From an uncultured Pelagibacteraceae bacterium (GTDB taxonomy: Bacteria; Pseudomonadota; Alphaproteobacteria; Pelagibacterales; Pelagibacteraceae): 49,418 nucleotides of DNA. The DNA is taken from contig CACDEK010000001.1 in NCBI GenBank assembly GCA_902551735.1, positions 1 through 49,418 of the forward strand, in the 5' to 3' direction. Of this stretch, positions 6,313 through 49,319 are shown piece by piece. Each line of letters begins with the position of its first letter. Position 1 is the stretch's first letter. A program made the translations under genes and the position numbers. The notes beneath the pieces are model-generated. The model saw only the letters and a program-made list of their open reading frames with translations, was not told the origin of the DNA and did not search any database.

Positions 6313-8091
6313 TTAACGAGGATTTTGAGGTTTCATGTCCGACTTATTTATACCTGCTACTTTAACAGGTTTTTTCATGGCATCTCTTCTAAAAGGTTCT
6401 CCTAATTCCTGATTTAAAATTACTTCTATAAAAGTTGTAATCCCCTTTTGCTGATCTTCACAAGATTGTTTTATAGCGTTAGTTGTTTCTTCCATTGTTT
6501 TAACAGTAACACCTTTTAAGCCACATGAATTAGCAACTTTTGCATAACTTAAATCTGGATCAAGCTCAGTACCTACAAAATTATCAGCGTACCATAAAAT
6601 TGAGTTTCTTTTTTCTGCTCCCCATTGATAATTTCTAAAAATTACCATGGTTATTTTTGGCCATTCTTTTCTAGCACATGAGCTCATTTCATTCATACTA
6701 ATTCCAAAAGCTCCGTCACCAGCAAATCCAATTACTGGTATATCTGGGCAACCAATTTTAGCACCTAAAATAGATGGAAAACCATAACCGCATGGACCAA
6801 ATAATCCAGGAGCAAGATATTTTCTTCCTTTTTCAAAAGTTGGATAAGCATTTCCAATTGCACAATTATTTCCTATATCGCTTGAAATAATTACATCTTG
6901 AGGCATACCCACCTGTATTGCTCTCCAAGCTTGTCTTGGAGACATACGATCGTTATCTCTTTCTCTAGCCTCTTTATTCCAAACTGTTCCAGGGTCATCT
7001 TCTTCATGATCTAAACTTGTTAACTTTTGCAACCACGCTGATTTTGTTTTATGTATTAAATCTTTTCTTTTTTGTCTGTCAGCATCTCCAGCCTTAGAAG
7101 TAAGATTTTTTAGTATTTGCTTAGACACTAATTTAGCATCACCACATATTCCTACGGTAACTTTCTTAGTGAGACCTATTCGATCTGAATTAATATCTAC
7201 TTGAATAACGCTTGCATTTTTTGGCCAATAATCAATTCCATAACATGGTAATGTTGAAAAAGGATTCAATCTTGTTCCTAAAGCCAAAATTACATCTGCT
7301 TTTGAAATTATTTCCATTGCAGCCTTAGATCCATTGTATCCAAGAGGTCCAACAGCTAAAGGGTGGCTTCCTGGAAAACTATCATTGTGCTGATAACCAG
7401 AACAAACTGGTGCATCTAATTTTTCTGCAAGTTTTTTACAATCTTCAATAGCTCCACCTATGACAACTCCTGCTCCAGACAAAATTACAGGAAATTTTGC
7501 TTCAGATAATAATTTTGATGCTTTTGAAATAGAATCTGATCCTCCAGTTTGTCTTTCAAGTTTTACAATTGGTGGTAAATCTATATCTACAACATGAGTC
7601 CAATAGTCTCTAGGTATATTTATTTGAGCGGGCGCAGATCCTCTCCAAGCTTTTTCAATAACTCTATTAAGAACCTCTGCCATTCTCGAAGGATCTCTTA
7701 CCTCTTCTTGGTAACAAACCATATCTTTAAATAAATTCATTTGTTCAACTTCTTGAAAGCCTCCTTGGCCTATAGTTTTATTTGCAGCTTGTGGAGTTAC
7801 TAAAAGTAGCGGTGTATGGTTCCAATATGCAGTTTTTATAGGTGTAACTAATCCTGTTATACCAGGGCCATTCTGAGCAATAACCATAGACATTTTTCCA
7901 GTTGCTCTTGTATAACCATCAGCAATTAAACCACCATTTGTCTCATGGGCAACATCCCAAAAAGTTATCCCAGCAGCAGGAAATAAATCTGATATTGGCA
8001 TAAATGCAGAACCAATTATCCCAAATGCATTTTCAATACCGTGATTTTGAAGAACTTTTACAAATGCTTCTTCGGTTGTCATTTTAGCCAT
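6313..8091 (-). CDS. xsc: Sulfoacetaldehyde acetyltransferase (ThDP-dependent)
   Basis: MTTEEAFVKVL...AFGIIGSAFMPISDLFP N-terminus, GDGAFG...FRNYQWGAEKRN ThDP motif and ELGEPFRRDAM C-terminus are all typical of Xsc. Confidence 0.95.
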   Translation of the reverse strand: MAKMTTEEAFVKVLQNHGIENAFGIIGSAFMPISDLFPAAGITFWDVAHETNGGLIADGYTRATGKMSMVIAQNGPGITGLVTPIKTAYWNHTPLLLVTPQAANKTIGQGGFQEVEQMNLFKDMVCYQEEVRDPSRMAEVLNRVIEKAWRGSAPAQINIPRDYWTHVVDIDLPPIVKLERQTGGSDSISKASKLLSEAKFPVILSGAGVVIGGAIEDCKKLAEKLDAPVCSGYQHNDSFPGSHPLAVGPLGYNGSKAAMEIISKADVILALGTRLNPFSTLPCYGIDYWPKNASVIQVDINSDRIGLTKKVTVGICGDAKLVSKQILKNLTSKAGDADRQKRKDLIHKTKSAWLQKLTSLDHEEDDPGTVWNKEARERDNDRMSPRQAWRAIQVGMPQDVIISSDIGNNCAIGNAYPTFEKGRKYLAPGLFGPCGYGFPSILGAKIGCPDIPVIGFAGDGAFGISMNEMSSCARKEWPKITMVIFRNYQWGAEKRNSILWYADNFVGTELDPDLSYAKVANSCGLKGVTVKTMEETTNAIKQSCEDQQKGITTFIEVILNQELGEPFRRDAMKKPVKVAGINKSDMKPQNPR

Positions 8092-9812: not shown

Positions 9813-10163
9813 TTAAAAGATCGTAGCTCCAAATATTTTAATTTCATCACCTTCTTCTCCAAGTACTAGACGGCCCAAAAATTCACCAGGCATTTTCGTG
9901 CTGGTTTGTTTATAGAGTACAGTCACGTACAGACCTCTTCTAAGACAACCAAATGCTTTGCAGCCTTCTACTAGGCTGGATATTAATTCGTTACTAGCCC
10001 ATTGTTTACCAAGCTCTATTTCATTTGCTCCATATAGCATTTGAGATGAAAGATCTTTTGTAAAACCACCGTAATCCTTAATATTTGATGATTTGACTAG
10101 ATTTTCCCAAATAGGGTCTGCAATTTTGATAATTTCATCGTCAGATTTATCTAAAAGACTCAT
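9813..10163 (-). CDS. Hypothetical protein downstream of aprA (DUF3887/NTF2-like appearance)
   Basis: 116-aa ORF 23 nt after the aprA stop; helix-then-strands pattern ending ...KIFGATIF. Confidence 0.7.
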   Translation of the reverse strand: MSLLDKSDDEIIKIADPIWENLVKSSNIKDYGGFTKDLSSQMLYGANEIELGKQWASNELISSLVEGCKAFGCLRRGLYVTVLYKQTSTKMPGEFLGRLVLGEEGDEIKIFGATIF

Positions 10164-10186: not shown

Positions 10187-12043
10187 TTAAGAAGCTTGTT
10201 TTTTTTCTTTATCATCAACAATATGGTAAACTGGTTTCTTCTCCATTGAAAATTTACCTGTTTCCTCATCTCTTTGAGAAACTGTTAAACAATGCCAATT
10301 TTCATCATCTAACTTCATATGATCACCTCTATAATAGTAACCTGGCCAACGAGTTTCTTCTCTATATAGTGTGTGTTCAGTAACACATTGTGACGTCAAA
10401 GTTCTATGTTTTAGCTCCCAGGCTCTCATTAACTGATGATAATCTTCTGCACCAACATTTTCTAAATCTTCCTGGAGCCAAACCAATAACTCTAAACCTT
10501 TTTTTAATAAATTATCATTTGTCATGTAATTGTTTGTAATTCCTCCACAATATTCATCCATTATTTTTTGCAGCCTTTGGAGACCTTGGATTGGAGAAAT
10601 ATAACTTGGTGAAACTGTCCCTCCTGTAATTTCATTTCTACCCACAGCATAATTTTCCATGGGTTTGTATATAATTTTTTTTAAATTTTGATATTGATTT
10701 TCAGAAACTTCTATACCATTGGCTTTTTTATCTTGAATATATTTAACTGCAGCTTTGGCTGCTAATCTTCCTTCAGTAAAAGATCCAGAAGAGAATTTAT
10801 GAGCACTTCCACCAACTGTATCACCAGCACCAAATAATCCTTCAACTGTCATCATTCTATTATATCCCCAAAAATAATCATCTGGAGCAATATCTTCAGG
10901 TCCACTAACCCAAGCACCAGAACATGTAGCATGAGAACCCATAACATATGGTTCTGATGTAGTTAATTCAGGATTGGTATATTTAGGATCTATATTTTGA
11001 GAAGCCCACACAACTGCCTGTCCAACAGTCATACCTAAAAAATTTTCCCAGCCTACAGTTTCTAAGTGAGGATCTTGGAAAGCTTCTTTGGTAACCATGT
11101 GAATTGGGCCACCACCTGCTGCTACTTCTTTTATAAAAGCATGATTTCTAAGACAAGTTGGAACTGGGTGATGGTCTATATACTCACCTACTAGTTTTTT
11201 TGTTTCTTCGTACCATTTCTTCTCATAATTTTCACCTTTGCCATTTTGTGTATAAGTTTTTAAATGCAGAAAATATGCACCAACGGGACCATAACCATCT
11301 TTGAATCTACATAAAACAATTCTGTTTTCCATTTGAGTCATTTTTGCTCCTACCTCAATAGGTAAAGCATATGCGGAGCCATTGCTCCAAGGTGCATACC
11401 AAGTTCTTCCCATTCCTTCACCTACGGCTCTTGGTTTAAAAATATGCGAAGCACCACCAGCAGCGACTATTACAGTTTTAGCTTTAAAAACATAATAATC
11501 TCCAGTTCTCATATTAAATCCAACAGCTCCAGCTATTCTATTGTTTTTACTTTCATCTTTTAAAAGATGCGTAATCATTATTCTGTTATAAATTTTGTCA
11601 GCTGATTTTTTTGCAGCCTCTGCAACAATTGGTTTGTAGCTTTCTCCGTGTATCATTATTTGCCATTTACCCTCTCTTTGATATCTGCCAGTTTCTTTGT
11701 TTCTCATCATAGGCAAACCCCATTCATCGAACATATGAACAGTTGAATCAACATGTCTCGCCATATCATATCCAAGGTCTTCTCTAACAAGTCCCATTAA
11801 ATCGTTTCTTGCGTATCTAACATGATCCTCTGGCATGTTTTCTCCCCATTGCATTCCCATATAACAGTTAATCGCATACAAGCCTTGAGCTACCGCACCG
11901 CTTCTGTCTATATTTGCTTTTTCAACACAAATTATTTTTAAATCTCTTCCCCAGTGTCTAGCTTCAAATGTAGCACCTGTGCCAGCCATACCTCCGCCTA
12001 CTACCAGGACATCACATTCTTCAAAAATAGTTTTTTTAGCCAT
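10187..12043 (-). CDS. aprA: Adenylylsulfate (APS) reductase alpha subunit
   Basis: GGGMAG FAD motif, RSGAVAQGL, WQIMIHGESYKPIV, GRTWYAPW, HKFSSGS, REETRWPG. Confidence 0.97.
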   Translation of the reverse strand: MAKKTIFEECDVLVVGGGMAGTGATFEARHWGRDLKIICVEKANIDRSGAVAQGLYAINCYMGMQWGENMPEDHVRYARNDLMGLVREDLGYDMARHVDSTVHMFDEWGLPMMRNKETGRYQREGKWQIMIHGESYKPIVAEAAKKSADKIYNRIMITHLLKDESKNNRIAGAVGFNMRTGDYYVFKAKTVIVAAGGASHIFKPRAVGEGMGRTWYAPWSNGSAYALPIEVGAKMTQMENRIVLCRFKDGYGPVGAYFLHLKTYTQNGKGENYEKKWYEETKKLVGEYIDHHPVPTCLRNHAFIKEVAAGGGPIHMVTKEAFQDPHLETVGWENFLGMTVGQAVVWASQNIDPKYTNPELTTSEPYVMGSHATCSGAWVSGPEDIAPDDYFWGYNRMMTVEGLFGAGDTVGGSAHKFSSGSFTEGRLAAKAAVKYIQDKKANGIEVSENQYQNLKKIIYKPMENYAVGRNEITGGTVSPSYISPIQGLQRLQKIMDEYCGGITNNYMTNDNLLKKGLELLVWLQEDLENVGAEDYHQLMRAWELKHRTLTSQCVTEHTLYREETRWPGYYYRGDHMKLDDENWHCLTVSQRDEETGKFSMEKKPVYHIVDDKEKKQAS

Positions 12044-12513
12044 TAATAATAAACTCCTTTTTTAAAAGCACTTTTTTCGACTTTAGGTAATTCTTTGTTT
12101 GTGTTTAAACCTTTAGGCTCTGAATATAATATTTGAGAATTTAATTCTCCTTGATTTGGTTTTTCTTCTTCAGCTAAATTTGGAATAAATTTTCCCCACG
12201 GTTTAGTTGTTATTGGTGAAATAAAATCTTTAACTGTTCCATTTCTAAATTTAATTTTCCAAGATATTGTTCCTTTTTCTTCTTCTCTTCTAACTCTTAC
12301 ACTATGTCCCATAGGAGAAAAATCAGCGTAACCACGAACATCAATTGCATGATTTGGGCAAGCTTTAACACAAGAATAACACTCCCAACAAAAATTCGGT
12401 TCAATATTTTTTGCACGTCTTATAGTTTCATCAATGTGCATAATGTCTGAAGGACAAATATCAACACAATGTCCACATCCATCGCAGCGGGTCATGTATA
12501 CAAATGTTGACAT
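12043..12513 (-). CDS. aprB: APS reductase beta subunit (2x[4Fe-4S])
   Basis: CDGCGHCVDICP and CWECYSCVKACP; TAATG coupling to aprA. Confidence 0.97.
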   Translation of the reverse strand: MSTFVYMTRCDGCGHCVDICPSDIMHIDETIRRAKNIEPNFCWECYSCVKACPNHAIDVRGYADFSPMGHSVRVRREEEKGTISWKIKFRNGTVKDFISPITTKPWGKFIPNLAEEEKPNQGELNSQILYSEPKGLNTNKELPKVEKSAFKKGVYY

Positions 12514-12534: not shown

Positions 12535-13335
12535 TTAATAATGTTTTGGCTCTTCTCTTTTTATACCTAGGCCAAATTGCTCAGGTGCATCAGCCGGTGG
12601 AGGCAAATTATCTCTAGAACCATCTGCTTCAGCTAAATTCTTTTGTATAGCAGCTCCTGGCTTGTAAAACATATGGGCAAATTTCGACCAATAAACACCA
12701 CCAAATAAAACAAGATTAGATAAAATATAAAAAACTAAAAAAACTTTATCATCCCATCTATCTTGTAAATTTAAAGATTGTAAAAAAGACCAAATTAAAC
12801 CAAATAAAGATGATGCTATAAGCGCAAGAACAAATAAATCTGCTCTAATTATTCTATACCAAGGTTGAGCCTCAGAATAAACATCAACTCTTAAAAAAAA
12901 CCAAAACCATGATCCCCCAAGAACAGTCATTATAGCACCTACATGCCAAACTATAGGCCACAATGAAGGTGTATCTGAAGATTGTGATGAATAACAAAAA
13001 ATCATTATCACAGAACTAATCCAAAACAAAATAGTTCCATACATACCAAGAAGGTGTGCTGCTCTCCTTTGACCAGCACCTAACTCTGATGTGGTAGCAA
13101 TATCACTAACAATGGTTTTGGATATTACAGATATTTTTTCACCAGCGCTTAGAGTTTTTGTAGCTGACAATTTTGCTTTTTTTGCATTTTCAAAAAAATA
13201 TTTAACATTTTTTTTATGTATTGTGTCAATAAGAGTTCCAACTACAACAAAAATTAACATTGCAAAAACAAAGGATTGCATAAAAACTGGGTCTACAGTT
13301 TCAGCTAGTATTGAATATGGATTCGTTTGTAACAT
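12535..13335 (-). CDS. aprM: APS reductase membrane anchor AprM
   Basis: Multi-TM protein with HLLGMYG and WSKFAHMFYKP motifs, directly upstream of aprB. Likely start MLQTNPY at 13335 rather than 13392. Confidence 0.88.
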   Translation of the reverse strand: MLQTNPYSILAETVDPVFMQSFVFAMLIFVVVGTLIDTIHKKNVKYFFENAKKAKLSATKTLSAGEKISVISKTIVSDIATTSELGAGQRRAAHLLGMYGTILFWISSVIMIFCYSSQSSDTPSLWPIVWHVGAIMTVLGGSWFWFFLRVDVYSEAQPWYRIIRADLFVLALIASSLFGLIWSFLQSLNLQDRWDDKVFLVFYILSNLVLFGGVYWSKFAHMFYKPGAAIQKNLAEADGSRDNLPPPADAPEQFGLGIKREEPKHY

Positions 13336-13388
13336 CTTGGTTAATATACCTTTTCTATTAAAGTATTTAGTATAGATAAGATAATAGA

Positions 13389-14159
13389 TCAACCGTTATA
13401 TCGAGGACATTTAGAAATAGCTTGTAGATATATTTTTAGTAAAACTCTGTAGTATTTAAAACTTTTTCTTTTCCAGGAAGAATTATAAACAGAATAAACA
13501 GATGCGACTCCTTTTCCTGATCCTATAATGATAATTTCATCATAAGTTTTTAATGAATTTATTAAAATATTTTTTTTTAGAATCTTAATTTTTTTTAAAA
13601 AAAAATTTAAAGTAGTTCCTTTATAAAAATTAGATATAGGCGAATAAATTTTATTTTTTTTTATAAATAGTAAATTAGAAGTGCCACTTTCCAATATTTT
13701 TTTGTTTTTATAAAGAGCTATATCAAATTTGGTTGTGTCTATTTTTTTCAGAAAATTTAAAATTTTTTTATATTTTAAATTTTTATACTCAGGATCAATT
13801 CTCTTATAATTTATTAATTTTAACGAAAATTTAGATTTTGGTATTAGTTTTTTTCTTAAAGAAATTGAGATTATTTTATTATTCACAGCAATTCTAAATA
13901 AATGGTTATATGTTTTTTTACGGTTAAGATTCTCATTAATTAAATATAAAATATTTTTTTTAATATTCTTTTTATGAATATTATAAATTTTTAATGATCT
14001 AAAAAGTTTATCTAAATGTTCTTTAAAAAATAAAATTTTAAATGGTTTTCCAATTACCCTCATAGTAGTAAAAACTCCATGAGAATCCCAAAGATCTTGA
14101 AATTTAATTTCTTCTAGATCTTTATGCCGATAAGATTTTTTTAATAATAAAGTTGCCAT
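13389..14159 (-). CDS. PLP-dependent class IV aminotransferase family, probable aminodeoxychorismate lyase (PabC-like)
   Basis: GVFTTMRV, EHLDKL, YKNLKY (PLP Lys), LESGTSNL; follows pabB/pabA-like genes. Confidence 0.75.
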   Translation of the reverse strand: MATLLLKKSYRHKDLEEIKFQDLWDSHGVFTTMRVIGKPFKILFFKEHLDKLFRSLKIYNIHKKNIKKNILYLINENLNRKKTYNHLFRIAVNNKIISISLRKKLIPKSKFSLKLINYKRIDPEYKNLKYKKILNFLKKIDTTKFDIALYKNKKILESGTSNLLFIKKNKIYSPISNFYKGTTLNFFLKKIKILKKNILINSLKTYDEIIIIGSGKGVASVYSVYNSSWKRKSFKYYRVLLKIYLQAISKCPRYNG

Positions 14160-14679
14160 TTTCTGTTAAAAAAGATTCTGGATGAAACTGAAATCCAAAA
14201 ATATTGTTTTTTATATCTTCAATACCCATTGGAATATTTGTTTTTGTACATCTCATCGTAATTTTTATATTGTTTGATTTATATGGTTCTAATAATTTCA
14301 ATGAATGATACCTGCCTACTGTAAAAGTTTTATTTTTTTTGAACACCTTGCTTTCTTTAGTAACTTTTACTATTGATTGATAACCATGATAAATTTTTTT
14401 TTGTTCTATAATTCTTCCCTTCTCATTAAATAGTATTTGCTGAAAGCCAAGACAAATTCCAATTAATTTTTTTTTTCCTTTATACTTGTTGTAAATATTT
14501 GATGTTAAAGGATAATCTTTTGGCGACCCGGGTCCAGGTGAAAAAACAATTATATTAGATTTTTGTAATTTTTTTTTGTCAATCTCAAAATAATTTGAAC
14601 AAAAAACTTCATCAAATTTTGAAAATTGGTGTACTACATTCCAAGTAAATGAGTCCTGATGATCAATTATATAAATCAT
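14122..14679 (-). CDS. pabA: Glutamine amidotransferase, PabA/TrpG family
   Basis: IDHQDSFTWN, SPGPGSP, GICLGFQ, RYHSL, FQFHPES triad motifs. Confidence 0.8.
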   Translation of the reverse strand: MIYIIDHQDSFTWNVVHQFSKFDEVFCSNYFEIDKKKLQKSNIIVFSPGPGSPKDYPLTSNIYNKYKGKKKLIGICLGFQQILFNEKGRIIEQKKIYHGYQSIVKVTKESKVFKKNKTFTVGRYHSLKLLEPYKSNNIKITMRCTKTNIPMGIEDIKNNIFGFQFHPESFLTENGNFIIKKILSA

Positions 14680-15890
14680 TTGTATAATTCCAATAAAGAT
14701 TTAGCCTTAATAAAGTTCTCATTAAATTCTTTTTTAGCTGAACTGTCTAAAACAACACCAGATGCAGCTGATATCTCAGAAATATTTTTATAATTTAATA
14801 TTGATCTAATTATTATATTAAATCTCATATCTTGATTAAATTTTACATAACCAAAACTTCCAGTAAATATATTTCTATCCTCTGTTTCTTGTTTGTTAAG
14901 AAGTTCTAAGGTTCTAATTTTTGGACAACCAATAACTGAACCACCTGGCATCATTGATTTAATTATATCTTTAATTTTTATTTTATTTTTTAACTTGCCT
15001 TGTATTGAAGTTATGTAATGAAAAAGATGCTTGTACTCTTCAACATATTTTTTTTTTAATATTTTTACAGTACCAGTTTTACATATCTTAGATAGGTCAT
15101 TTCTTTCCATATCAACTATCATATTATGCTCTTTCGTTTCTTTAAGGTTATTTTTAAAAAAATTTAAAGCTTTTAACTTATTAATTTTTTTACTTTTTTT
15201 AAGCGTTCCAGCTATCGGTTTAGTGATTATATTATTTCCCTTTTTATCAATTAAAGTTTCTGGGGAACAGCTGACTATCGAAAAATTTTTATCCCTAATC
15301 ATAAATGATTCTGGTGAAGAATTAACTTTCATTAACTTCCAAAAAAAATTAATAGGATTAATTTTTGATTTATTTTTATATTTTGTACAAACTTTTATTT
15401 GATAAGTTTCTCCTTGTTTAATTTTTTTTGAAAATATATTAAATATTTCATTATATTTCTTATAGTTAATGTTTAATTTAAATGCTGTTGAAATTTGTGA
15501 TTTATCAAAATACCTTTTAAAAAAGTTTTTTTTTATTGAAGATAATATTTTTATATTTTTTCTTATTTTAATTATTGTTTCAGGTTTATAAAAAACACCT
15601 TTATAAAAGTTAAGTTTTTTTTGATTTTTAATTTTTATATTAAGTAAATTACAAAGAATTTCATATCCAAAAAAACCTATATAAAGATCTGTATCTTTTT
15701 TAAATTTTTTTTTTGAAAATAATTTAAAAAATTGATTAACATTGTTGTTTGTTAACACAATTTTTTTTGAAAAATCAGTATAAATGTTATAACCATATTT
15801 TACTTTATAAATAATTAAAGGTTTATCGGAGTTATAAAGTTTCTCCAAATATGAATTAAATTTTGGTTTATGCGAGTTGAGGTCTTTCAA
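14676..15890 (-). CDS. pabB: Chorismate-binding enzyme, aminodeoxychorismate synthase component I (PabB/TrpE family)
   Basis: SCSPE, KPIAGT, EHNMIVDMERNDL, PGGSVIGCPK, NIIIRS; clustered with PabA- and PabC-like genes. Confidence 0.78.
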   Translation of the reverse strand: MKDLNSHKPKFNSYLEKLYNSDKPLIIYKVKYGYNIYTDFSKKIVLTNNNVNQFFKLFSKKKFKKDTDLYIGFFGYEILCNLLNIKIKNQKKLNFYKGVFYKPETIIKIRKNIKILSSIKKNFFKRYFDKSQISTAFKLNINYKKYNEIFNIFSKKIKQGETYQIKVCTKYKNKSKINPINFFWKLMKVNSSPESFMIRDKNFSIVSCSPETLIDKKGNNIITKPIAGTLKKSKKINKLKALNFFKNNLKETKEHNMIVDMERNDLSKICKTGTVKILKKKYVEEYKHLFHYITSIQGKLKNKIKIKDIIKSMMPGGSVIGCPKIRTLELLNKQETEDRNIFTGSFGYVKFNQDMRFNIIIRSILNYKNISEISAASGVVLDSSAKKEFNENFIKAKSLLELYK

Positions 15891-20551: not shown

Positions 20552-20725
20552 ATGATTTTAGATTTTGAACCAGGGGATAAAGTAGTAAATACAGCTAATA
20601 AGGATTGGGGAATCGGGCAAGTCCAATCTATAATAAATGAAAAAGTGACAGTTAATTTTGAAAATGTTGGAAAAAAAGTAATTAATGCTAAAAACATAAC
20701 ATTAGAAAAAATAAATAATGGATAA
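20552..20725 (+). CDS. DUF3553-like small SH3-type protein (not in the ORF track)
   Basis: [57 protein letters not shown]; WGIGQVQS...TVNFE motif; overlaps the cysQ start. Confidence 0.85.
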
Positions 20726-21491
20726 TAAAAATTTAAAATATATATGCGATAGTTTAATTGATACATTTCTTGTCGCTGGAGACAGATCAATCGAGCTCAG
20801 AAAAATTGGTTTAAAAAAGGAGATCAAACCAGACAATACTCCTGTTACAAATGCAGATATAGAAGTAAATGAAATCTTAATAAAAAAAATTAAAAGCTTA
20901 ACTCCAGACATTCCTATTGTTTCAGAAGAGAGTGAATCCCATAAATTAAGTTTAAATCTTAAAAAATTTTGGTTAATAGATCCAATAGATGGAACCTATG
21001 ATTATGTTAATAATAGAGATGAATTTACTTTAAATGCTGCTCTAATAATTAACAAAAAACCAGAGCTAGGCATTGTGTATGCTCCTGCAAAAAAAAGATT
21101 ATTTTACTCGTATGGGAATGGATATAGCTTTGAAATATCTGATCAAAAAAAAACTAAATTGCTTTGCAAAAAACAAACAAAAAGCAATCAAATAAAAGCT
21201 GTTACTTATTCTCAAAACTTAAAACCAATTATTGCCGATCTACATAATAAGTTTGGAGTTACTGAATATATTAAAATGAAAAGTTCTTTAAAATTTTGTG
21301 TTATTGCAACAGGTGAATTTGATTTTTATGTTTCTGAACCAAGAGCATCCGAATGGGATATTGCAGCAGGACACGCAATATTAAAAAATGCTGGTGGTAT
21401 TATTACTGATTTCGAAGGTAATGATATTAATTATGGAAAAAAAGATTTTAAAAATCCAAGTATAATTTTAAAAAGAGGTATAAATCTTTAA
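20718..21491 (+). CDS. cysQ: 3'(2'),5'-bisphosphate nucleotidase
   Basis: KPDNTPVTNAD, VSEE, WLIDPIDGT, SSLKFC, EWDIAAGHAIL. Confidence 0.9.
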   Translation: MDNKNLKYICDSLIDTFLVAGDRSIELRKIGLKKEIKPDNTPVTNADIEVNEILIKKIKSLTPDIPIVSEESESHKLSLNLKKFWLIDPIDGTYDYVNNRDEFTLNAALIINKKPELGIVYAPAKKRLFYSYGNGYSFEISDQKKTKLLCKKQTKSNQIKAVTYSQNLKPIIADLHNKFGVTEYIKMKSSLKFCVIATGEFDFYVSEPRASEWDIAAGHAILKNAGGIITDFEGNDINYGKKDFKNPSIILKRGINL

Positions 21492-46448: not shown

Positions 46449-47300
46449 TTAATCAGCTAGACCATCAGCTCTTGGTTTATTTCTCTCTAAATGAATTGGT
46501 AACACTTTTCCATATATAGCTCGCGAATGTTCTGGCGTGTTAACTCTCCAAGGGTCCAAAACATAAGCTGGTATACAAAGATATCTTGGACGATCTCCTT
46601 CTACTCTTGTAACCCTGTGAAGTGTGAATCTACCTTTAAAGATTTGTAAATCACCTGGTTCTAAATTCAACTGTCGAACTCTTTTACGGTCTCCGTCTAA
46701 TACTTTTTTAACTTCTTCAAAATTTTCATTTCCGGGTTCTCTGATGTATGGACAGTATTCAAATATTCCACCTTTCTCGGGCTTTTGTATCATTATACTC
46801 AAGGTGAATTCACAACTATCAAAGTGCCATGGAAGAATTCCATCAGGTTTCATTACATTATAGGCATGACAAGCCAAAGGATCGGCCCATCGATAAATTG
46901 GCGATATTCCAACACATGAAGATACAAATTTTAAAAGTTCTTCTTGTTCATAAAGAAATTTCATCTCTGAGTTTTTATCAAAAAGATCTGAGTTTAAATA
47001 TCCATTATATCGTTTAGAAAATATTTTTTTTGGATGGTCTTTTTCTAGTGAGGAATCGTCTTTAGAGTGTAAGTATGGATTGATACTTTCATTCGACATG
47101 TAAACTTTATCGACCTGTTTTTCTAACTCTAAATTCATTCTTTCTAAAGATTTTGGAAGTATAAAATTAGGAATAGTTGAACAACTAAATTGATCTAGAT
47201 CAGTTTTACATTTATTAATTATTTCTTTTATTTTTGGAGAATTTAAATCTTGAATTGGATATTTTTCTAAGTCAACAATAGTTTTTAGTCTATCGTTCAT
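46449..47300 (-). CDS. Fe(II)/2-oxoglutarate oxygenase, BesD/HalD-like fold, HxD (hydroxylase-type)
   Basis: LPWHFDSCEFT (HxD), QKPEKGGIFEY, FKGRFTLHRVT (distal His), downstream Arg for 2OG binding. Confidence 0.78.
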   Translation of the reverse strand: MNDRLKTIVDLEKYPIQDLNSPKIKEIINKCKTDLDQFSCSTIPNFILPKSLERMNLELEKQVDKVYMSNESINPYLHSKDDSSLEKDHPKKIFSKRYNGYLNSDLFDKNSEMKFLYEQEELLKFVSSCVGISPIYRWADPLACHAYNVMKPDGILPWHFDSCEFTLSIMIQKPEKGGIFEYCPYIREPGNENFEEVKKVLDGDRKRVRQLNLEPGDLQIFKGRFTLHRVTRVEGDRPRYLCIPAYVLDPWRVNTPEHSRAIYGKVLPIHLERNKPRADGLAD

Positions 47301-47677
47301 TTGTCCTTTAGTTTGCCATCTTCTCTCATTTTGGCTCTAATTTTGGTTGCTGAAATTTTTTGTATTTCTTCAGGCATAACTATTTCTTCTATTTTATAAC
47401 CAACACCTCTTCCATAGCATATATTAGTAATGTTAGGCACTAACATAATTTTAAATCTACCTTCATATTTTGGATTTAATCTATCTTCTATTTTTTTTTT
47501 AACTGTTTCAAAATCAAAAGGATTATCATCTACTCCTTGTACATCTCTGATTTGAATACAAACTTGGCCTGTTTTTTTAATTATTTCTTCAAATAAAGCA
47601 TAATGACCGTCATGAAATGGTTGCCATCTACCTAACATTTGTGCTGTTGGTTTTTTATTATCCCATTCATAAGACAT
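47297..47677 (-). CDS. Minimal HxGH nucleotidyltransferase (cytidylyltransferase-like)
   Basis: LGRWQPFHDGH and ISATKIR motifs in 126 aa. Confidence 0.82.
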   Translation of the reverse strand: MSYEWDNKKPTAQMLGRWQPFHDGHYALFEEIIKKTGQVCIQIRDVQGVDDNPFDFETVKKKIEDRLNPKYEGRFKIMLVPNITNICYGRGVGYKIEEIVMPEEIQKISATKIRAKMREDGKLKDK

Positions 47678-48084
47678 TATTTTAGATCCTCGACAATTTT
47701 AAATGCCCATAGTTTAGCATCTTGTGTTGTAACATGAAAATTAAATTTTTCAGGTTTCACAAACATTTGGTTTGTATCCTCAAATCTTCCTTTTGTAATA
47801 GTGTCTACCCATACAATATAATCTGCTGGAAACAACTCTCTTGCTTCTGGTGTTGGGCAAATAAAATCAGCAATAACATTATTACCTTCTTTTTTTATTT
47901 TAAGAGCTTCATTAGACATCCTTTTTGCTTGCCTTTTTCTTCCTTCTTCTGAAAAATCCCAATCATTTGCAGCTTTTCTTATTTCATCTGCATTTAATCT
48001 TTTACATTTAATTAATTTTGCCAACTCATTTGCTAAAGTTGTTTTGCCTGCTCCGGGCAATCCCATAATTAAAATTATTTTCAT
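47677..48084 (-). CDS. Minimal P-loop kinase, adenylylsulfate kinase (CysC)-like
   Basis: GLPGAGKTT, LNADEIRK, DFSEEGRKRQAKRM, IADFICPTPEAR in 135 aa. Confidence 0.8.
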   Translation of the reverse strand: MKIILIMGLPGAGKTTLANELAKLIKCKRLNADEIRKAANDWDFSEEGRKRQAKRMSNEALKIKKEGNNVIADFICPTPEARELFPADYIVWVDTITKGRFEDTNQMFVKPEKFNFHVTTQDAKLWAFKIVEDLK

Positions 48085-49319
48085 TAAATATCTTCTAAAG
48101 GATGATGGGACATAAGTTCAAGATTATTTTCACCAACTAAATATTGTTGTTCAAGTTTAACACCTTCTTTGCCCCCTACTTTCCCAATATATGATTCAAC
48201 AGTAATAGTCATATTTTTTTCAAAATACCCTTCTCTTTGCCCACCATCAGTAGGATATTTTATCTGGGGCCATTCATCACAAAGACCTATACCATGAACC
48301 ATGCAGGAATATCTATTCCCATAATAATCATCAGGAAGTTTCCAAGATTTTTCTGTGAATTCTTTAAATGACATTCCGTTTTTAATTAATCTAGAATTGT
48401 GATTTATTTGTTCAACTGACATTAAATATAATTTTTTTTGATCATCATTAAATTTATTTCCCTCTACAAAAGATCTGGAGATGTCTGCACAGTAGCCATA
48501 AGGTCCAACCATATCAGTATCAAAAGATACCATTTCTCCTCTTTGGATGATTTTATTGGTACTTTCTTGCATCCATGGATTAGTTCTTTCACCAGAGGAT
48601 AAAATTCTACACTCAATCCATTCTCCTCCATGTTCAATATTTGTTTTGTGTAAAATTGACCAAAGTTCATCTTCGGTCATTCCTGCTTTTAATTCATCGC
48701 GCATTTTAGCAACACCAATTTCAGCAACATCAATTGCGGCTTTCATGCATTTTAATTCCTCAGCAGATTTAATAACTCTTGCTTGCTCAAGAATTAATTT
48801 TGCATCTAAAACTTTAATATTTGCTCTATTTAACGCTGTTACTGCAGGACCATTAATTATATCGATAGCAATCTTTTTGCTCTTAAAATAAGATTTTGAT
48901 AAATCTTCAATCTCATTAATCCATTTTTTTAATTGCTCGCTTGCCTGATCGCCGTTGCTAAAATAATCCCATGTTATTGCTGGTCTTATCTCTTCAATTA
49001 AATTTAAATGACTAGATAGACCTTCACAATTAAAATATTCATATAATATGGTTGGTCCATTTACGGGTATAAAGCAATAGCGAGTTAAATTGTGCATATT
49101 GTAAATACTCATATTAACAGTATCCAGTGCATATCTAACATTAACTGGATCAAATAATATACAAGCTTCAAGATTGTTTTTTTGTAATTCTTTTTTAACT
49201 CTATCTAATCTGTAGGATCTTAACTTATCAAAATTTATTTCATCTTCTTGAAATCTTTTTTTTGTTATAAATCCTGAATTAGGTTTTGCATCTGGTAAAA
49301 TTTTTCTTTTAAATTTCAT
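48084..49319 (-). CDS. M24-family metalloenzyme, DddP (DMSP lyase)-like
   Basis: LFDPVNVRYA, SGERTNPWMQE, FDTDMVGPYGYCADISR, YSCMVHGIGLCDEWP, ESYIG, VKLEQQ. Confidence 0.8.
   Translation of the reverse strand: MKFKRKILPDAKPNSGFITKKRFQEDEINFDKLRSYRLDRVKKELQKNNLEACILFDPVNVRYALDTVNMSIYNMHNLTRYCFIPVNGPTILYEYFNCEGLSSHLNLIEEIRPAITWDYFSNGDQASEQLKKWINEIEDLSKSYFKSKKIAIDIINGPAVTALNRANIKVLDAKLILEQARVIKSAEELKCMKAAIDVAEIGVAKMRDELKAGMTEDELWSILHKTNIEHGGEWIECRILSSGERTNPWMQESTNKIIQRGEMVSFDTDMVGPYGYCADISRSFVEGNKFNDDQKKLYLMSVEQINHNSRLIKNGMSFKEFTEKSWKLPDDYYGNRYSCMVHGIGLCDEWPQIKYPTDGGQREGYFEKNMTITVESYIGKVGGKEGVKLEQQYLVGENNLELMSHHPLEDI

Follow-up and report, generated by a model that had tools for sequence, protein, structure and literature searches.

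In A. vinosum, the ATP sulfurylase gene sat heads the operon sat-aprMBA, and the enzyme has characteristic features such as a QxRN sulfate-binding loop (both from the accessible part of PMC3779200). In the sections available of three studies of SAR11, sat and cysDNC are absent from HTCC1062 (PMC5069961), "most SAR11 lack ATP sulfurylase" (PMC10356861), and the pathways are incomplete, though aprAB is under strong purifying selection (PMC12636525). The available part of a fourth gives no support for sulfate incorporation in SAR86 (PMC11582366). Reports of the adenosine 5'-phosphosulfate (APS) reductase AprBA in SAR11 without sat and cysDN had left it open what becomes of APS there. Here we describe a gene pair in a 49,418-nucleotide stretch of DNA (the window) from an uncultured Pelagibacteraceae bacterium. 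Both open reading frames (ORFs) proposed in an earlier sequence-only reading are present on the minus strand; they encode a 126-amino acid HxGH nucleotidyltransferase (47297..47677, hereafter the transferase) and a 135-amino acid homologue of the APS kinase CysC from which most of the lid is deleted (47677..48084, hereafter the kinase). Gene context and distribution make it quite likely that the transferase is a minimal ATP sulfurylase able to work in both directions, from a third family that descends from NadM-like adenylyltransferases and not from Sat or CysD, and the kinase a lid-trimmed APS kinase. The parts seen of PMC2211403 and PMC8359478 hold nothing on the transferase gene, and no description of it was found in full-text literature, where most subscription journals were out of reach.

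The pair is not a product of chance, since the two proteins match the two halves of a single phage family, phrog_10255 (E 1e-30 and 1.2e-23), and transferase orthologues are 85–97% identical across the genus of the window. The GC content of the two genes is 0.29–0.31, compared with 0.288 for the window. Their ORFs overlap by one base at the junction TAATG, so the translational coupling that had been noted is real. It is not peculiar to the pair, as the preceding M24/DddP-like gene is coupled to the kinase by TAATG and the transferase to the next gene by ATGA; coupling was rejected as the mark of a special pair.

The transferase occurs beside aprMBA in three different arrangements. (Genomes, loci and homologous proteins are labeled G, L and P, respectively; g1 is the genus of the window, g8 and g12 are other genera, and f2 is a family. 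G000 is the genome of the window, 856 kb and 63.5% complete, with the window as contig C1.) In all nine aprA-bearing g12 genomes, the transferase stands alone, on the same strand and 49–75 bp before aprM, as it also does in L128, L131, and L160. This is the place of sat in A. vinosum, and thus the Sat slot of the apr operon. In f2, every one of the 15 loci read has the pair abutting aprMBA and the gene following it, orf116, head-on; these loci come from two genera, whose flanks differ. The 17 of 24 f2 genomes that have the transferase are the same 17 that have aprA, a match inflated by the physical linkage of the genes. In g8, the pair is located three genes before aprM. A few loci keep the transferase in place without aprMBA (L132, G062, and G063); in L132 it is followed directly by tauE. 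These are candidates for a relic or for use solely in the synthesis of 3'-phosphoadenosine 5'-phosphosulfate (PAPS).

We searched 225 genomes of the order (224 at ≥90% completeness, and G000). The transferase was found in 182, aprA in 188, the kinase in 164 (E up to 1e-20), Sat in 9, and CysD in 7. Neither Sat nor CysD was found in searches of the incomplete G000. Apart from G000, 172 genomes have both transferase and aprA, 28 have neither, 9 have the transferase only, and 15 have aprA only. Outside the genus of the window, the corresponding numbers among 52 genomes are 19, 27, 5, and 1, with unlisted negatives derived from genus tallies. Both genes are present in each of the 38 genomes of the genus that consist of a single contig, the match in G151 being weaker and in two pieces. 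The 15 genomes of the genus that gave no transferase match are drafts (20–40 contigs), and assembly gaps are the likely reason. One of the genomes counted, G089, is unpublished; it raises the g1 tallies by one and is the sole basis of no claim. All seven CysD genomes are without the transferase, one of the CysD matches being partial and broken. In G038 and G039, CysD lies in open frames of ~500 amino acids (L228 and L229), against a 294-position model, and is possibly part of a fusion.

The kinase is separable from the transferase. Eight g1 genomes keep the transferase and lack the kinase, with a clean loss in the closed genome G133, and only 1 of 14 g12 genomes has the kinase. A match to the sulfotransferase family PF13469 is missing from six of these eight g1 genomes, as against 23 of the 149 with the kinase, and from 13 of 14 g12 genomes, the remaining match being weak. 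Thus the transferase goes with aprA or with the kinase, and the kinase in turn goes with sulfotransferases, a separation that the scheme proposed below predicts. A strict kinase–transferase pairing was rejected, as 10 of the 80 genome loci and 7 of the 78 viral ones have the transferase without the kinase, in some cases at contig edges. The sequence-only reading had offered the pair as a substitute for a missing Sat. The three apr arrangements, the co-occurrence with aprA, and the rarity of Sat bear this out for the transferase; it is this gene, and not the pair, that profiles with aprA.

Other loci place the pair in assimilatory or sulfation contexts. In one draft genome, a single run at L151 (2220-7357) comprises genes for chelatase, CysG-type methyltransferase, sulfite reductase (its score exceeding the PRK13504 cut-off), PAPS reductase, DUF2061 protein, the kinase, and the transferase; Sat, CysD, and aprA were not found in this draft. 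The genome is titled Pelagibacteraceae, and a complete assimilatory sulfate-reduction run is unusual for the family, if the bin is right. In glycan islands, the transferase takes the slot that Sat has after cysC: the order is cysC-like, Sat, pyruvate-kinase-like in L043 and L210, and cysC, transferase, pyruvate-kinase-like in L034 and L184. The pyruvate-kinase-like gene recurs in such islands beside Sat, the small transferase, or a fusion (also L211 and L181), and might regenerate ATP for sulfate activation. Directly before the pair in L196–L198 and L201 is cysQ. We also scanned 77 neighbors for sulfotransferases (73 picked from 152, and 4 viral) and found matches beside L126, L129, L135, L149, L179, and L184, and weakly beside L124 and L145. 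Fusions give the same association. In P0245, the transferase is fused to a canonical CysC that scores above cut-off, and P0285 is a sulfotransferase–kinase–transferase fusion. P0287 and P0289 have an N-terminal domain with a sulfotransferase-like motif by eye and no Pfam sulfotransferase match, followed by kinase and transferase.

The two domains are widespread without AprBA. Of 48 genomes from the family to which a SAR86 genome belongs, 42 have the transferase, none has aprA (the search detected the positive control G000), and one has CysD, this genome being among the six without the transferase; Sat was checked in one SAR86 genome. Among 78 viral loci (80 less two fragments of just 18 residues), the domains are fused in 35 and adjacent in 36, with the transferase alone in 7. 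The 80 genome loci comprise 14 fused, 53 adjacent, 10 with the transferase only, and 3 with the genes separated. The fusions, in both the 35 viral and the 14 genome cases, are kinase-first and ~260 amino acids in length. DUF2061 is a frequent viral neighbor (18 loci). In viral L045–L047, a transferase without kinase, 89% identical to that of the window, lies between a primase-like gene and genes for an adenine methyltransferase and SufE; it may be an energy gene taken from a host. The tree built from 43 transferase domains has low resolution, with good support for 14 of 40 branches, and mixes phage and SAR11 copies, and we claim no direction of transfer from it. Relatives of both genes occur in two metatranscriptome contig sets, with shares below 0.1 and no strand or level, so these were not used as evidence of expression.

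The transferase is NadM-like in sequence and fold. The sequence-only reading credited it with only HxGH and SxTxxR; both motifs are present (H22-D-G-H25 and S109-A-T-K-I-R114), and several others are conserved, namely G16-R17-x-Q19-P20, R44-D45, N52-P53, P81-N82, and Y88-G89-R90-x-V92-G93-Y94. Motifs were counted in alignments of 42 or 76 rows for the transferase and 57 rows for the kinase. Invariant in 42 rows are G16, R17, Q19, P20, H22, G24, H25, P53, P81, G89, V92, G93, S109, and R114. The HxxH motif of Sat is thus present (H22 and H25 in 42 of 42 rows), as is SxTxxR (S in 75, T in 74, and R in 76 of 76 rows), which is common to the whole superfamily. The segment YGRxVGY looks similar, as a motif, to the GRD loop of Sat (G89 in 76 and R90 in 75 of 76 rows; x is D in 37, G in 23, and K in 9); the transferase of the window reads GRG at this point. 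An AlphaFold (AF2) model of the transferase (predicted local distance difference test [pLDDT] 95.9) was closest in fold to NadM (1f9a; Z 11.1, rmsd 3.0, 115 aligned), CoaD (Z 10.8), and NadM-Nudix (Z 10.7). The transferase shares the GRxQPxH motif and the HUP fold with NadM. It nonetheless scores far below the cut-offs for NadM (23.6 vs. 181.2 bits for TIGR01527; 27.8 vs. 127 for PRK01153) and CoaD (19.8 vs. 104 bits). The GSAQ loop seen after strand 2 in 1f9a, which functions in binding nicotinamide mononucleotide (NMN), occurs in 0 of 42 rows, and R44-D45 is there instead. Judged by conservation, R17, Q19, R44, and R90 are candidate sulfate ligands. An ESM Atlas search returned just clusters of the transferase family itself. 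Most long homologues other than the kinase or sulfotransferase fusions resemble assembly read-throughs and were left out.

The view of the transferase as a trimmed Sat is not borne out, and membership in the Sat family was rejected. The transferase is a single domain without the N-terminal domain of Sat, had no match to PF01747 in a Pfam scan at E up to 1, and is excluded from the family by its lack of the QxRN and GxxKxxD loops; a Foldseek search with the model gave no Sat among the matches listed. We infer from gene context that the transferase works like Sat, with ATP sulfurylase activity (EC 2.7.7.4), without belonging to its family. A reaction already known would, in all likelihood, be carried out here by a new family of enzymes.

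The kinase is CysC-like with a shortened lid, as had been read from the sequence. It matches Pfam APS_kinase (PF01583) at 43.3 bits (cut-off 21.1) over residues 3–83 and is below the equivalog cut-off of TIGR00455 (36.5 vs. 138.7 bits); its second NCBIfam match is PRK05541. With a 57-row profile, APS kinases are the top solved structures, and the top five Foldseek matches of the AF2 model (pLDDT 94.3) are all APS kinase domains, the best being the kinase domain of human PAPSS1 (TMq 0.85). Alignment with 2yvu leaves a gap of ~19 residues in the lid, and there is a gap with respect to 2gks as well. The available part of PMC4373884 names the residues of M. tuberculosis CysC for catalysis and APS binding, and K456, D480, R483, F492, and R497 of that enzyme correspond by motif spacing to K14, D33, R36, F44, and R49, which are kept in 57, 54, 57, 54, and 56 of 57 rows, respectively; P77 falls within the same range (54–57 of 57). 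The kinase thus has equivalents of the catalytic Asp, the two phosphosulfate-binding Arg, and the adenine-stacking Phe. The conserved segment GR[FY]xDTNxxF may stand in for the lid, and R100 and F108 for lid residues. The likely reaction is APS + ATP to PAPS + ADP.

The transferase is predicted to form a homodimer. In the monomer model, residues 81–102 are without secondary structure. Folding two copies with ATP gave a dimer score of 0.92 (best control, 0.01), with three runs agreeing in 100% of contacts and a partner pLDDT of ≥93; 20 of the 30 solved homo-pairs attained the mark for this score, as did 1 of the 23 single chains. The model, in which residues 81–88 pair with residues 8–16 of the other subunit, supports a strand-swapped homodimer. 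Each active site would then be completed by a strand (residues 81–88) lent by the partner.

We propose the following scheme. Sulfite from organosulfonates, released through Xsc, would be oxidized by AprMBA to APS. The transferase would convert APS and pyrophosphate (PPi) to ATP and sulfate, conserving energy and freeing the adenylate, and the kinase would divert part of the APS to PAPS for the sulfotransferases of the genome. Where AprBA is missing, as in SAR86, soil alphaproteobacteria, and phages, these domains would act in the forward direction, as a PAPS synthase of ~260 amino acids that starts from sulfate. We know of no smaller PAPS synthase. It is likely that the transferase is a third independently evolved ATP sulfurylase, about a third of the size of Sat, which is the main sulfate activator of SAR11 and SAR86, is spread by their phages, closes the AprBA route of SAR11 with substrate-level ATP, and forms part of the smallest PAPS synthase known to us.

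A number of observations weigh against this proposal. The sequence has neither the QxRN sulfate-binding loop of Sat (0 of 42 rows; the loop reads G16-R17-W18-Q19-P20) nor its GxxKxxD mobile loop (0 of 42). When profiles were compared, the probability of a match to Sat was 57%, over 40 columns, no higher than for CoaD. The closest solved sequences are NadM enzymes (E 2.7e-12), no Sat is among the 54 solved sequences matched at E up to 10, and the fold match to Thermus Sat (1v47; Z 8.7, rmsd 3.3, 117 aligned) ranks seventh. The kinase lacks the DPKGLY-type motif of the ~30-residue lid (0 of 57 rows), and M. tuberculosis CysC cannot work without closing its lid (PMC4373884, available part), so that activity of the lid-trimmed kinase cannot be assumed. 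The link between transferase and aprA is not strict, with 15 of 224 genomes having aprA only and 9 of 224 the transferase only, and the co-occurrence tables overstate significance because related genomes are not independent. The presence of the transferase without aprA in SAR86 and phages speaks against a purely Apr-linked role. Sat and the transferase occur together in eight of the nine Sat genomes, where Sat is mostly surrounded by glycan-type or cysC genes, and also in G277. Three genomes (G044, G049, and G078) have sulfotransferases without a match to the transferase, Sat, or CysD. In phages, a Pfam sulfotransferase is found within five genes in 3 of 75 loci (102 of 129 neighbor representatives scanned), and whole-record searches of five partial records gave one match over cut-off.

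Sulfate-activation chemistry in the broad sense, including the possibility that it serves PAPS supply alone, is highly probable. In that narrower form, the pair would provide PAPS for glycan or protein sulfation, and the APS made by AprBA would be removed otherwise, for example through hydrolysis by a HIT-family protein, with no gain of ATP. HIT proteins can hydrolyze APS. In G013, the gene immediately preceding aprM is of the HIT family, and several g12 loci have such a gene near tauE or the apr genes, which could dispose of APS in this way; together with the SAR86 and phage pairs lacking aprA and the sulfotransferase-like genes a few genes from the loci listed above, this favors a role confined to PAPS. 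We nevertheless consider it unlikely, as the transferase heads aprMBA in g12 where kinase and sulfotransferases are nearly absent, G133 has lost the kinase cleanly and retained the transferase, and no homologue of the L036 HIT gene was found in the incomplete G000. The HIT-family genes themselves lie at L036:6843-7244 and L128:7888-8286, and also in L232, L233, L236, L237, and L239. Alternatively, the pair may make a different 3'-phosphorylated nucleotide donor for glycan decoration, by transfer of a nucleoside monophosphate (NMP) onto a non-sulfate anion and subsequent 3'-phosphorylation. Campylobacter Cj1416/Cj1415 is a model for such donor synthesis. The missing sulfate loop, the PRK05541 match of the kinase, and the setting of phage copies among genes for glycosyltransferases, FkbM methyltransferases, and GDP-mannose dehydratases, mostly without a recognized sulfotransferase, would suit this explanation. 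It is improbable, however, for it leaves unexplained the slots beside aprM, cysI-cysH, canonical CysC, DUF2061, cysQ, and sulfotransferases, as well as the complementary pattern with CysD.

Two further explanations had been raised in part by the sequence-only reading and find little support. One is NAD salvage by a NadM- or NadR-like NMN adenylyltransferase and kinase, or a pair like CoaD and CoaE. That NadM and CoaD are nearest to the transferase in sequence and fold agrees with it, as does a NADAR gene two genes upstream in Xylella phage Salvo. The scores far below both families' cut-offs, the missing GSAQ loop, and a kinase that is CysC-like rather than NadR-like make it very unlikely. NadD-type and CoaD genes are, moreover, separately present in five of five genomes checked (one NadD-type match being below cut-off), which renders NAD or CoA roles unlikely; the true CoaD of G000 is on contig C24 (169 bits), and a housekeeping NadD or CoaD role for the transferase was rejected. 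The least probable explanation is that the pair activates an osmolyte for the surrounding betaine/carnitine operon. The pair in g1 does usually lie in a betaine/carnitine region, most often with an enoyl-CoA hydratase gene within a few genes after it, and the genes overlap in a run. However, immediate neighbors vary within g1, other genes are inserted between kinase and transferase in L140, L143, and L146, and in g8, g12, f2, and most SAR86, as in soil bacteria and phages, the pair lies at unrelated sites.

Several further genes of the window have a part in the proposed scheme. The genes aprA (10187..12043; TIGR02061, 998 bits vs. cut-off 641.75) and aprB (12043..12513; TIGR02060, 190 bits vs. 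135.65), both on the minus strand, encode APS reductase subunits alpha and beta. The presence of aprMBA without sat that had been noted therefore stands for aprA and aprB; the name aprM, given to a membrane gene (12535..13392, minus) with a weak QmoC-like match, comes from the earlier reading and from position. In the window, aprA lies 35 kb from the transferase, to which it is adjacent in relatives, and its product presumably is the source of APS. Likewise, xsc (6313..8091, minus; TIGR03457, 965 bits vs. 676.4), which encodes sulfoacetaldehyde acetyltransferase, presumably supplies AprBA with sulfite. The cysQ reported for the window is present as a cysQ-like gene (20718..21491, plus) that scores just below cut-off (TIGR01331, 207.8 vs. 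228.8 bits). Its product would recycle 3'-phosphoadenosine 5'-phosphate (PAP) after sulfotransfer, and is not diagnostic; it is weak as evidence because cysQ is present in all seven strains in Table 3 of PMC5069961 (available in part). In the same table, and in contrast to the absence of cysDNC that the paper states for HTCC1062, cysC and aprA are apparently found in the same five strains, as far as the columns can be followed in flattened text. A strong sulfotransferase match is on contig C9 of G000.

The flanks of the pair are a DddP-like M24 gene upstream of the kinase (48084-49319, minus; 341 bits vs. cut-off 600) and a gene for a HalD-like 2-oxoglutarate oxygenase downstream of the transferase (46449-47300, minus; above the Pfam cut-off), followed by genes for a carnitine dehydrogenase-like protein and an enoyl-CoA hydratase. 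The DddP-like and HalD-like genes are variably present among relatives. In each of the apr loci read (from g1, g8, g12, and f2), aprA is followed by a 116-amino acid ORF (orf116; 9813..10163, minus; 59–73% identity across 10 loci). This ORF had no Pfam, NCBIfam, or PDB sequence match and is a possible unrecognized partner of Apr. In g12 (L128:2095-2766; L232–L240), a TenA/PqqC-family gene takes the place of three genes at 13389-15890 of the window, presumably pabB, pabA, and pabC, which suggests a swapped p-aminobenzoate route.

The transferase would supply the sulfate-activation step reported missing in the abundant SAR11. If our assignment is correct, sulfite derived from organosulfur compounds yields ATP in SAR11, PAPS synthesis is open to both SAR11 and SAR86, and phage "cysC" genes with a transferase neighbor are complete sulfate-activation modules. 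Surveys of sulfur pathways that score sat or cysD would then overlook a widespread family.

Among known systems, Sat (PF01747; A. vinosum Sat, 4dnx, and 1v47) shares with the transferase the HUP-superfamily fold, HxxH, SxTxxR, a similar-looking GR loop that comes after strand four, and the positions before aprM in g12 and after cysC in the islands. Sat is, however, 330–400 amino acids in length, and the transferase, lacking its N-terminal domain, loops, and Pfam signature, is nearer to NadM. Archaeal-type NadM and NadM-Nudix (1f9a, 1ej2, and 2qjt) provide the best match in sequence and fold, with GRxQPxHxGH, NPF, and SxTxxR in common, whereas the transferase is ~40 residues shorter, has RD for the GSAQ loop, falls far below the family cut-offs, occurs among sulfur-pathway genes, and is predicted to be a strand-swapped dimer. 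The kinase has the fold (TMq ~0.85), P-loop, catalytic Asp, both phosphosulfate Arg, and first adenine-stacking Phe of APS kinases (CysC and the APSK domain of PAPSS1; 2ofx, 4bzq, and 7yq1), but LDGD is LNAD in the window kinase, and most of the ~30-residue lid with its Lys is replaced by the short GR[FY]xDTNxxF. Family phrog_10255 (from Xylella, Xanthomonas, and Stenotrophomonas phages), to whose genes the window proteins are 40–49% identical, is annotated just as kinase or hypothetical, with no function given to its second domain. A parallel in architecture is offered by the bifunctional PAPS synthases (human PAPSS1 and Aquifex Sat-APSK, 2gks), in which a kinase and an HxxH transferase are likewise combined in one chain. 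PAPSS1 has its kinase first, matching the ~260-amino acid fusions; these are less than half its size and have a transferase domain of other origin, and in G000 the two genes are split.

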